From Candidatus Omnitrophota bacterium (GTDB taxonomy: Bacteria; Omnitrophota; Gorgyraeia; Gygaellales; Profunditerraquicolaceae): 64,000 nucleotides of DNA. Below the pieces are notes generated by a model. That model had not been told where the DNA came from. It was given only the letters and a program-made list of their open reading frames with translations, and ran no database searches. The position numbers were made by a program, and so were the translations under genes. Of the stretch, positions 34,733 to 39,681 are shown one piece after another. The number at the start of each line of letters is the position of its first letter. The first letter of the stretch is position 1. Location: positions 1,059-65,058 of the forward strand of contig JAPLLS010000093.1 of assembly GCA_026387435.1 (NCBI GenBank), written 5' to 3'.

Positions 34733-34824
34733 GGCGTTATTCTACCGCGTTTAGGAGGAAGCTGTCAAGAGTCCAGATTTTGCGGTCCCTGTCGCGGGCC
34801 TCAAGAAATTTTGCCAGGAGCCGG

Positions 34825-34917
34825 GATTATTTGGTATAATAATGTTTGGAAAAAATCTTTCCCCCTCGCGCTATCCGCGCTCGGGGTCAATTTTTTCTTC
34901 TATAATAATGTTTGGAA
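34825..34917 (+). repeat. Copy A of a ~70-bp intergenic repeat family (plus a 22-bp partial unit), immediately upstream of the ACT-like gene.
   Basis: ctttccccctcgcgctatccgcgctcggggtcaattttttcttctataataatgtttggaaaaaattgagg at 34847-34917, preceded by tataataatgtttggaaaaaat at 34825-34846. It is about 90% identical to the copies at 39430-39570. Confidence 0.8.
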
Positions 34918-34935
34918 AAAATTGAGGAGGTGGTT

Positions 34936-35190
34936 ATGAGCAAAACTTTGTTGGTGATTCTTATGCGGACGAGGCGTTCATCGGCAGTAAAGGTCCAGAA
35001 AGTGCTTACGGATTTCGGCTGCATGATCAAGACCCGGCTGGGAATTCATGACGGAGTGCTGGATAAATGTTCGGACACGGGATTGGTCATCCTCGAGCTG
35101 GTGGGTTCTAAAGCCGATAGATCAAGCTTGAATAAGAAGCTAAAAGCGATTTCCGGAGTAAAAACCAAATTGGTCGGGATTTCACTGTGA
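34936..35190 (+). CDS. ACT-like small regulatory protein (NikR C-terminal-like / TM1266-type family).
   Basis: The 84-aa sequence MSKTLLVILMRTRRSSAVKVQKVL...GIHDG...GLVILELVG...ISGVKTKLV has a beta-alpha-beta-beta-alpha-beta ACT-like pattern. It begins at ATG 34936, which has a GAGGAGG Shine-Dalgarno sequence. The family assignment is from memory. Confidence 0.4.
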   Translation: MSKTLLVILMRTRRSSAVKVQKVLTDFGCMIKTRLGIHDGVLDKCSDTGLVILELVGSKADRSSLNKKLKAISGVKTKLVGISL

Positions 35191-38818: not shown

Positions 38819-38975
38819 CAGTTCAAGCGCGGTTTAGCTTTAAAACAGGGGAGTTGTCTGATCGTTTTGGGGGGGTAAAAAAATGCCGGTCGCCCTCAAC
38901 AGCTTTTGAGGCTGCCGCGTATGCCATTTCGCCACCTCGGCAAGAGTAATATAACTATACTATCCAAAATCTTGT

Positions 38976-39027: not shown

Positions 39028-39426
39028 ATGTTCAGGATGAATTTATTCGTGATTATTGCAATGCTCGCGTTTGTTTCAGGCTGCGTGACTACGCCTGTCG
39101 TGAATTATTCCGGAGAAAATCAGCAGCTCAAAACGCAGGTTAATTCCCTGGAAACGCAATTGAACCAGTTAAAGCAGGAGAATTTCCAGCTGCGCCAGCA
39201 GTTGCAGCAGCAGGCTGCCGTTAAAAAAGAAGTGCGCATGCCCAATGCCTCCGAGATCCAAGCTGCTCTGAAGAAAGCCGGGTTCTATAAAGGGCCGGTA
39301 GACGGGCAGATCGGCACGCAGACCAAAGAATCGATCAAGAAATTCCAGGAAGCGAATAAGATCAATCCTGACGGGGTAGTGGGAAGCAAGACCTGGCAGT
39401 TGTTGTTGAGATATTTGGAAAAATAG
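39028..39426 (+). CDS. Lipoprotein with a coiled-coil and a C-terminal peptidoglycan-binding (PG_binding_1) domain.
   Basis: Lipobox AFVSGC, a Q-rich coiled coil, and the peptidoglycan-binding motif EIQAALKKAGFYKGPVDGQIGTQTKESIKKFQEANKINPDGVVGSKTW. Confidence 0.7.
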   Translation: MFRMNLFVIIAMLAFVSGCVTTPVVNYSGENQQLKTQVNSLETQLNQLKQENFQLRQQLQQQAAVKKEVRMPNASEIQAALKKAGFYKGPVDGQIGTQTKESIKKFQEANKINPDGVVGSKTWQLLLRYLEK

Positions 39427-39570
39427 AGGAAAATTTTCTCTCCCTCGCTTCTGCGCTCGGGGTCAAAATTTTCTTCTTGAAATATATGTGATGAAAATTT
39501 TTCTCCCCCTCGCGCTATCTGCGCTCGGGGTCAAAATTTTCTTCTATATAAAATGTTGGGAAAATTTTGA
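39411..39570 (+). repeat. Tandem copies B and C (plus a partial) of the ~70-bp intergenic repeat family. They overlap the stop of the lipoprotein gene and abut the tRNA-Ala 5' end.
   Basis: Partial unit 39411-39429, unit B 39430-39497 and unit C 39498-39570. Each carries ccctcgc(g/t)ct(a/t)tc(t/c)gcgctcggggtcaaaattttcttct... The final 'gagg' of unit C overlaps the first two nucleotides of the tRNA. Confidence 0.8.
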
Positions 39571-39646
39571 GGGGCTGTAGCTCAGTTGGGAGAGCACTTG
39601 CATGGCATGCAAGGGGTCGAGGGTTCAACTCCCTCCAGCTCCACCA
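39571..39646 (+). tRNA. tRNA-Ala (anticodon GGC).
   Basis: A 76-nt cloverleaf reads by eye: acceptor ggggctg/cagctcc with the G3:U70 Ala identity pair, D-arm gctc-agttggg-agagc, anticodon stem cttgc/gcaag with loop atGGCat, T-arm gaggg-ttcaact-ccctc, and an encoded CCA. Confidence 0.85.
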
Positions 39647-39652
39647 AAATAA

Positions 39653-39681
39653 AAAGGCGGGTAAATCCCCGCCTTTTTTAT
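39653..39681 (+). terminator. Rho-independent terminator downstream of tRNA-Ala.
   Basis: aaaaaggcggg-taaatc-cccgcctttttt forms a 6-bp GC stem followed by a T-run. Confidence 0.7.

Follow-up and report, generated by a model that had tools for sequence, protein, structure and literature searches.

What could a short repeat be doing that stops precisely where a gene begins, once in front of a protein gene and once in front of a tRNA gene? The question is raised by a 64,000-nt stretch of a Candidatus Omnitrophota genome (assembly GCA_026387435.1, contig JAPLLS010000093.1, positions 1,059 to 65,058; hereafter the window), in which a unit of ~67 nt occurs at two intergenic loci, locus A upstream of a TM1266-like gene and locus B upstream of tRNA-Ala. 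The units belong to an apparently undescribed two-hairpin intergenic cassette of Candidatus Omnitrophota, of which we located 23 units at 16 loci on metagenome contigs of this phylum (more than 10 contigs or metagenome-assembled genomes, MAGs), 14 of the loci being outside the window. Searches of the literature on Omnitrophota/Omnitrophica yielded no relevant repeat or promoter element of this type. Our tentative answer, to which we give a probability of about 0.4, is that this lineage-restricted family of structured cassettes acts mainly in the transcript, as a boundary module between RNAs.

Locus A (34835-34925) consists of one full unit, A1, and a 22-nt duplicate, A0, whereas locus B (39427-39570) holds two units, B1 (39427-39502) and B2 (39503-39570). 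An initial annotation of the window had counted 1.3 copies ending at 34917 and 2.3 copies at the second locus; the two loci and their units were confirmed, the true end of locus A lies 8 nt further at 34925, and locus B comprises two units and not 2.3. Nor does the array overlap the upstream stop codon, as had been stated, since the TAG of the upstream peptidoglycan-binding open reading frame (ORF) occupies 39424-39426, B1 begins directly after it, and what lies to the left (39411-39426) is ancestral coding sequence which is also present in relatives without the repeat. A repeat search placed the four segments in one family (79% identity between A1 and B2 over 82 nt), and the 24-nt core has two matches in the window at ≤3 mismatches against none in 100 shuffles. 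No further copy was found in the 64 kb with a covariance model and a structural descriptor, and the arrays escaped Tandem Repeats Finder, their copies being too few and too divergent. An A-rich leader with a Shine-Dalgarno (SD) sequence was also considered as a genome-wide feature and rejected, GAAAAWWTTGAGG being not above chance outside the two loci.

The wider family was found by pattern scans, the covariance model and the structural descriptor, whose reversed-sequence control gave 2 hits. The exact-pattern scan of species-representative genomes returned one genuine locus, in a Candidatus Omnitrophota MAG (L019) with two tandem units between smpB and tmRNA that end in AAAAAATTTGA followed by GGGGGUG; the remaining 27 of its 28 hits came from a 21-mer within coding sequence of Proteobacteria and others. 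Nine genuine loci came from the metagenome pattern scan, and synteny-based comparison added L041 and two diverged units of L058, which were spotted by eye and then by the structural descriptor. Two pattern scans of a viral collection gave chance hits only or none, model R1 found no copy in L044-L046, L051-L057 and L058-L068 (the diverged L058 units escaped this model), and further copies were not found in ~250 kb from other relatives. At the gathering score, Rfam recognized the tRNA alone in the window; at E ≤10 nothing matched over the A units, and the matches touching the B units were at chance level and mostly covered the tRNA and its terminator (e.g., PrrB_RsmZ, 39550-39681, 15 bits, E 3.1). 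Compared by unit only, A1 is 89% identical to the L037 copy over 72 nt and 83% identical to the L032 copy over 71 nt; the 91% identity of B2 to L037 over 146 nt is mostly conserved tRNA-Ala. As the initial annotation had held, the repeat is therefore a dispersed as well as tandem family; it is not a local duplication, the 14 further loci standing before non-homologous genes.

The downstream genes are diverse, namely tRNA-Ala(GGC) three times (window locus B, L037 and L041), tRNA-Ala(CGC) and tmRNA once each, rpsK and rpsM twice each, rho, argG, a kdsA-type gene, a NifU-like gene, the genes of a Lys-rich protein and a small membrane protein, and the TM1266-like gene. At 15 of the 16 loci the cassette has the orientation of the gene that follows, the single inverted copy being in L036, and within every array the units repeat directly, head to tail, at a period of 66-68 nt. 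The claim that the unit ends exactly at the SD sequence or at the 5' end of an RNA gene was borne out in the window, by the GGAGG at 34926 and by G1 of tRNA-Ala at 39571. In the orientation of the gene, the right-hand junction reads TTGA (TTCA in L058 U2) and then GG(A/G)G, with L033, where GAGAAAA follows, as the exception; at A1 the TTGA occupies 34922-34925 and the GGAGG 34926-34930. Both types of RNA gene that adjoin cassettes, tRNA-Ala and tmRNA, start with GGGG. On the other side, a long co-directional ORF (e.g., SmpB, BirA, a radical-SAM protein, HcyBio, S13 or CoaE) ends 1-65 nt before the first core at 9 of the 10 loci checked. The exception is locus A, which lies in a divergent intergenic region between a 59-aa zinc-ribbon ORF (minus strand, start 34732) and the TM1266-like ACT-fold gene (plus strand), downstream of a conserved canonical promoter. 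With these co-directional upstream ORFs and the locus A promoter, every copy is expected to be transcribed from upstream.

The core of the unit has 4 bp, a T-C/T-C internal loop, another 4 bp and an apical loop (TATCY in the window), with the arms CCCC/GGGG and GCGC/GCGC. It had been taken for a mirror repeat and hence for a protein-binding site in preference to a hairpin. The A1 arms CTCGCGC/CGCGCTC do read as a mirror, because GCGC is self-complementary, but the mirror fails in most family members while complementarity holds. Across 20 units from 12 contigs, 97.5% of the cells are paired, both sides have changed in 5 of the 8 pairs, and the covariation score is 0.33 against 0.10 for shuffles (0 of 500 reach it); slid registers of the stem give only 29-58% pairing. 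The inner stem occurs as GCGC/GCGC, GCCG/CGGC, GCAG/CTGC, GCGA/TCGC, GCGG/CCGC, GGCG/CGCC and GTCG/CGGC, its positions varying yet staying complementary (15 cells changed on both sides at two pairs), and the outer stem has the alternatives CGCC/GGCG and CTCT/AGAG. These compensatory changes in both stems are indicative of base pairing and not of a duplex protein site; the core is an imperfect inverted repeat, that is, a hairpin. What is conserved in sequence is CCCC/GGGG, both TC dinucleotides and the loop TCT. Units on which the search pattern placed no such constraint (B1, L36a, L041, the inverted L036 copy and L058 U2) keep both TC dinucleotides and the loop YWTCT, with L058 U3 (TC/CC) as the exception; O1 also keeps the dinucleotides and the loop but matches the pattern of the metagenome scan. 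Taken as a whole, the unit forms a long but imperfect palindrome, and in L039 it includes a perfect 16-nt inverted repeat (CCAAACATTTTTATAG/CTATAAAAATGTTTGG), although in the arrays the left flank is a direct copy and not an inverted one. In L029 (minus strand), the first unit of the array has another GC hairpin, GCCGGCAGGCACCTACGGCGG, in place of the core and keeps the T-rich arm, box and A-rich arm, which suggests a modular exchange of the core.

The second hairpin, P4, is formed in the gene-proximal unit, where the T-rich arm TCAAWWTTTTCT is exactly complementary to the A-rich arm GGAAAAWWTTGA that ends the unit, and its loop of 13-17 nt (UAUAAnAAUGUUU) contains a TATAAT-like box. Among the 13 terminal units, 96.8% of the P4 cells are paired and 14 have changed on both sides (TT/AA, AA/TT, AT/AT, and C-G to G-C, A-U and U-A), and again 0 of 500 shuffles reach the score. 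The duplex spans 9-12 bp at -5.7 to -12.9 kcal/mol (mostly -9 to -13) in main-family terminal units, whereas the corresponding region of internal units gives -2 to -7 kcal/mol, and the 3' arm of P4 ends exactly at the GGAGG or at G1 of tRNA-Ala or tmRNA. Minimum free energy (MFE) folds of both window loci contain the core and P4, with z-scores of -3.6 to -4.2; the counts of G-U and A-C pairs do not tell which strand folds. The TATA of the box is present in 12 of 13 gene-proximal units and in 0 of 6 internal ones (Fisher exact p ~3e-4, computed by hand from the counts). The sixth base of the hexamer is T in only 4 of the 13 terminal units, and an alternative -10 register, nAnAAT, ending before a conserved G, fits the box better. 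The units U2 and U3 of L058, inside rpmJ-rpsM-rpsK, have stem sequences entirely different from those of the main family and keep both the core (T-C/T-C in U2, T-C/C-C in U3) and P4 with no TATA box, which indicates that the box is dispensable. Most terminal units also hold a 5-codon frame, ATG TTT GGA AAA AAT TGA (MFGKN*; window 34909-34925 and 39552-39570), the stop of which adjoins GGAGG and the ATG of which is the best-kept part of the box, internal units included.

The cassette had also been considered portable in the manner of a repetitive extragenic palindromic (REP) sequence or a miniature inverted-repeat transposable element (MITE), and comparison with close relatives upholds this. 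Between L041 and L051 (85-90% identity) there is a clean indel right before G1 of tRNA-Ala, with 83 nt (one unit) in the former and 5 nt in the latter; L046 is likewise without a unit before tRNA-Ala. In L046 and L051, the cassette-less tRNA-Ala lies 22-32 nt past a stop codon, so that its co-transcription with the upstream gene would be ancestral. Similarly, two forward units lie between rpsM and rpsK in L036, besides the inverted one between rpmJ and rpsM, whereas L060, whose S11 is 92% identical to that of L036, has no unit at either site, and the locus A unit is absent from three syntenic relatives (L044, L046 and L041). Such filled and empty pairs (L041/L051, L036/L060 and window/L044/L046) show no consistent target duplication, a 22-nt direct repeat being found at locus A alone. 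The outer-stem variant CTCT/AGAG, TCCT/AGGA is in all three units of the L041/L058 genome and nowhere else. Among the copies linked to tRNA-Ala, those of the window, L032 and L037 have AAAATTTT arms in common, while the L041 copy has AAATTTTT, a pattern of arm sequences that suggests long retention at that site. The family is a natural example of a compact genome gaining and losing ready-made intergenic expression modules. A separate insertion was seen at L034 (~1600-1765), where an unrelated insert of ~165 nt with inverted ends GTGCACTGTGTAAT/ATTACACAGCGCAC, which looks like a second MITE-like element, lies inside the box of the first (internal) unit upstream of argG.

Does the TATAAT-like box make the cassette a promoter, as the initial annotation had proposed? 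Neither a -35 element 16-18 nt upstream of the box nor the TGn of an extended -10 is present, the GC stem and TCAAWWTTTTCTTC being there instead, whereas native promoters of the window score 10-11 of 12 in a promoter scan with good -35 boxes. A0 is the only unit with a -35 (TTGCCA-18 nt-TGgTATAAT), and this belongs to the resident promoter of the TM1266-like gene, whose -10 is the first 6 nt of A0. The motif caagaaatgTTGCyy...TGgTATAAT is kept in the syntenic L044, L046 and L041, all without the locus A unit. Transcription from the resident -10 is predicted to start at the foot of a long hairpin, and by folding the A-run of A0 is able to pair with the T-rich arm as helix P1; the core and T-rich arm (TCAATTTTTTCTTC, 34887-34900) are flanked by the two 22-mer copies. 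For this proposal the evidence is divided, the confinement of TATA to terminal units fitting a -10 element, while the missing -35 outside A0, the unconserved sixth T and the TATA-less L058 U2 and U3 speak against it, and in our judgement a promoter role is secondary. As to termination, an intrinsic terminator has its U-run within 0-2 nt of a GC-rich stem; the core stem here carries a 2x2 mismatch and is followed by a UCAA spacer before U4-7, and a terminator consensus scan called no unit. The same scan called a canonical bidirectional intrinsic terminator (AAAAAGGCGGG-loop-CCCGCCTTTTTT) at 39651-39678, directly after tRNA-Ala, so ordinary terminators exist in this genome, unlike the repeat core.

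Because the units occupy transcribed spacers, have no -35 and include two TATA-less copies with both hairpins, an RNA-level boundary module is the best reading of the family, and it is supported by the covariation of both hairpins and by a P4 whose stem and loop are intact in the gene-adjacent unit alone. In the RNA as we envisage it, the A-rich arm of a unit would be followed by the GC hairpin, with U-C/U-C in its internal loop and YWUCU in its apical one, and then by a U-rich arm, to which the gene-proximal unit would add the 12-bp AU hairpin P4; the cassette would be placed in spacers that are already transcribed, past the stop of a co-directional gene or past a resident promoter. The GC hairpin or hairpins with the U-run may give the upstream RNA a protected 3' end, perhaps with partial termination, and P4 may insulate the downstream ribosome-binding site. 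At the tRNA and tmRNA genes, an upstream mRNA cut by RNase P would be left with a flush hairpin at its end. The AU-rich P4 loop would be a likely entry site for an endonuclease and may add weak, -10-like promoter activity, and the cassette would spread and be lost as a MITE or REP-type element is. Several observations weigh against this boundary module. The 12/13 to 0/6 distribution of TATA is what would be expected of a -10 element, and the A0 box literally is the -10 of a canonical promoter. The flanking genes are mostly functionally unrelated (BirA/small membrane protein, CoaE/Rho, SmpB/tmRNA), and between such genes a terminator and a promoter would be expected. A hairpin in the DNA is possible in view of the uninformative G-U and A-C counts, a hairpin flush with position -1 of a tRNA is unusual for an RNase P substrate, and the reading offers no reason for the conservation of the U-C/U-C loop.

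These observations lead to the explanation that we rank second and consider possible though doubtful, a terminator-promoter-leader cassette in which the A-tract, GC hairpin and U-run of one to three tandem copies terminate the upstream gene, and the box of the last unit is a -10 from which transcription starts at the G of GGAAAA, producing an A-rich leader of 12 nt that extends up to the SD or the mature 5' end of the tRNA or tmRNA. Its A-tract/GC stem/T-tract layout resembles that of bidirectional terminators, its position before stable-RNA genes and between unrelated genes would be sensible, the coincidence of A0 with a conserved promoter would follow, and TATA is confined to terminal units, one internal box being even broken by the unrelated insert. 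Yet the box lacks the -35 or TGn that accompanies native promoters, its sixth T is kept in 4 of 13 units only, the stem is separated from the U-run by a spacer of 3-4 nt (TCAA) and goes uncalled as a terminator, and tRNA-Ala is evidently co-transcribed with the upstream gene in cassette-less relatives. Above that, this model leaves unexplained the near-perfect, covarying P4 of terminal units only and the two L058 units that keep both hairpins without the box. Unlikely, and third in our ranking, is a selfish non-autonomous mobile element (a MITE, a REP or akin to a palindrome-associated transposable element, PATE) with no host function, whose hairpins would be recognized on single-stranded DNA by a trans-acting transposase, e.g., of the IS200/IS605 type or of the REP-associated tyrosine transposase (RAYT) type. 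If the target were a G-run (GGAGG/GGGG, or CCYCC as read on the opposite strand), the constant orientation would follow, and so would the precise junction with SD, tRNA-Ala and tmRNA, in keeping with the TTGA-GG(A/G)G junctions and the initial GGGG of both RNA genes hit. Clean presence and absence between close relatives, the inverted copy, the head-to-tail arrays, the long imperfect palindrome with its 16-nt inverted repeat in L039 and the outer-stem variant shared by all three units of one genome would also be natural for such an element. It is countered by the want of a definable target-site duplication and of a transposase among the genes around the loci examined, by a low copy density (2 loci in 64 kb), by compensatory change that maintains the stems even in very diverged copies, and by the locus-specific arms shared by tRNA-Ala-linked copies, which point to long vertical retention under selection.

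A bolder and rather improbable idea is a new orientation-locked, site-specific element, either a mobile regulatory element that inserts 5' of a G-run or the cis-element of a phylum-specific RNA-binding factor. If so, the G-run would be the GGAGG of the SD or the initial GGGG of tRNA-Ala and tmRNA, and the factor would recognize the U-C/U-C hairpin (G-A/G-A on the other strand), by which tRNA-Ala, tmRNA, ribosomal proteins, rho, argG and kdsA would be wired into one post-transcriptional regulon and the concerted outer-stem change of one genome would be co-evolution with that factor. Very improbable, to our mind, is a regulator site in double-stranded DNA, for example one of the class-II activator type with its centre near -40 of the box: the centre of the core does lie ~40 nt upstream of the predicted start, and sequence conservation is seen in CCCC/GGGG, in the two TC dinucleotides and in the loop TCT, but the inner stem varies freely while remaining complementary, unlike half-site recognition, and mirror symmetry fails in most members. 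Finally, local duplication or chance similarity with no wider family, which the presence of only two loci in the window might suggest, is practically negligible and was refuted by the 14 further loci upstream of non-homologous genes and by the absence of matches in shuffles.

Where does such a family belong? Correia elements of Neisseria (known as CREE or NEMIS) are small dispersed palindromes without coding function, most of which lie directly upstream of genes; they have -10-like boxes close to their ends, are co-transcribed, fold into long hairpins subject to RNase III processing and vary in presence from strain to strain (PMC10969869). The Omnitrophota unit is similarly a small palindromic dispersed element upstream of genes, with a -10-like box and presence/absence variation. 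Correia elements, however, have 26-bp terminal inverted repeats, a TA target duplication, a site for integration host factor (IHF) and either orientation, and they bear no sequence relation to the Omnitrophota unit, which differs in its orientation locking (15/16), head-to-tail arrays, T-C/T-C GC core, exact end at SD or tRNA and lack of a definable target duplication. REP sequences and bacterial interspersed mosaic elements (BIMEs) of Proteobacteria are short imperfect GC-rich palindromes in transcribed spacers, often clustered, with compensatory stems, and stabilise the 3' ends of upstream mRNAs; REPs carry a 5' GTAG-type tetranucleotide, form inverted pairs, lie mostly 3' of genes and are accompanied by a RAYT gene. 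The GC-rich imperfect palindrome in a transcribed spacer, the clustering and the compensatory stems are common to both, whereas the Omnitrophota unit forms direct tandems at a fixed distance 5' of the downstream gene and has a second, AU hairpin. None of the 20 aligned units has GTAG next to the core (it is usually TCTC, sometimes TTTC, TAGT, GTTC, TAGG or GTTG), and inverted pairs as in REP doublets (REPINs) were not found, all arrays being direct.

Putative mobile promoters are outlined as upstream segments of 50-100 nt with ≥80% identity before non-homologous genes, within or between genomes (Matus-Garcia, Nijveen and van Passel 2012, PMC3488235). The Omnitrophota units agree with that outline, within the genome only as a borderline case (A1/B2, 79% over 82 nt). 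In the outline such segments are delimited by similarity alone, whereas the Omnitrophota unit has a doubtful promoter function and two conserved, covarying hairpins. Mycobacterial interspersed repetitive units (MIRUs) and the BOX elements of pneumococci are likewise direct tandem units of 40-100 nt, intercistronic, gene-oriented and of variable copy number between strains, MIRUs having small ORFs that overlap the flanking stop and start and BOX being modular (boxA, boxB, boxC). The Omnitrophota unit is unrelated to BOX in sequence and, with a period of 66-68 nt, is not consistently in frame as a MIRU would be. A MIRU-like coding repeat was accordingly rejected, the periods being 66, 67 and 68 nt; the 27-aa ORF at 34842-34925 arises as a side effect of the 66-nt period. 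With neither the GTAG nor the inverted pairs of REP, no consistent target duplication and no Rfam match, the family is best filed among small structured dispersed intergenic repeats with regulatory potential, within which its orientation locking, head-to-tail arrays, exact abutment to SD or RNA 5' ends and conserved pyrimidine-pyrimidine internal loop are unusual. Omnitrophota are uncultured bacteria with small genomes, and we know of no experimental data on their gene-expression signals. The family offers a concrete, alignable cis-element with two covariation-supported hairpins that marks the boundaries of genes, tRNA-Ala and tmRNA among them; the family can be converted to a covariance model for annotating Omnitrophota genomes, and its function can be tested in metatranscriptomes. 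The features of the two window loci are collected in Table 1.

Table 1. Components of the two cassette loci and their adjoining genes, in window positions
Feature	Positions	Strand	Basis and remarks
Resident sigma-70-type promoter of the TM1266-like gene	34811..34840	+	TTGCCA-18 nt-TGgTATAAT; promoter scan 11/12, extended -10
A0, 22-nt box and A-rich arm TATAATAATGTTTGGAAAAAAT	34835..34856	+	Exact duplicate of 34901-34922, period 66 nt
A1 core hairpin CCCCTCGCGCTATCCGCGCTCGGGG, CCCC TC GCGC TATCC GCGC TC GGGG	34862..34886	+	Sequence, fold, covariation
A1 hairpin P4, TCAATTTTTTCT (34887-34898) paired with GGAAAAAATTGA (34914-34925), loop box TATAATAATGTTT (34901-34913)	34887..34925	+	MFE fold; 12-bp duplex -10.5 kcal/mol; covariation
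SD GGAGG and TM1266-like/ACT-like gene	34926..35190	+	SD 34926-34930, ATG 34936, stop 35190; adjoins the cassette
B1 left A-rich arm AGGAAAATTTTCTCT	39427..39441	+	Sequence, inverted repeat, fold
B1 core hairpin, CCC TC GC TTCT GCGC TC GGGG	39442..39462	+	3 nt below consensus length
B1 T-rich arm (39463-39476), degenerate box TTGAAATATATGTGAT (39477-39492), A-rich arm (39493-39502)	39463..39502	+	Internal unit, no TATA box
B2 core hairpin, CCCC TC GCGC TATCT GCGC TC GGGG	39506..39530	+	Sequence, fold
B2 hairpin P4, TCAAAATTTTCT (39531-39542) paired with GGAAAATTTTGA (39559-39570), loop box TATATAAAATGTT	39531..39570	+	Fold, duplex energy, covariation; ends one base before tRNA-Ala G1
tRNA-Ala(GGC), begins GGGGCUG right after the cassette	39571..39646	+	ARAGORN; Rfam tRNA 66 bits

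Other structured elements were observed in the vicinity of the units. Between tRNA-Ala and the CTP-transferase/APS-kinase gene of L041 (13560-13760) and L051 (13370-13560) there are other repeated hairpins, CCAGCGC-taattggaatt-GCGCTGG occurring twice together with CACCGGTGCA...GCACCGGTG, and in L058 (9868-9895) a perfect 11-bp hairpin, CACTTTTCCGC-aaaa-GCGGAAAAGTG, with a T-run after it separates the stop of rpsM from the diverged unit before rpsK. In the window itself, a truncated tRNA-Leu(CAA) was noticed at 38888-38944 (minus strand), which drew no ARAGORN call and 20 bits from the Rfam tRNA model. Its 5' part, which reaches past the anticodon and into the variable arm, can be aligned with the intact tRNA-Leu(CAA) genes in L041, L046 and L051, its T-arm and 3' acceptor are replaced by GGCATTTTTTTACCCCCCC, and a promoter-like TTGACA-17 nt-TATAGT stands upstream of it at 38982-38954.

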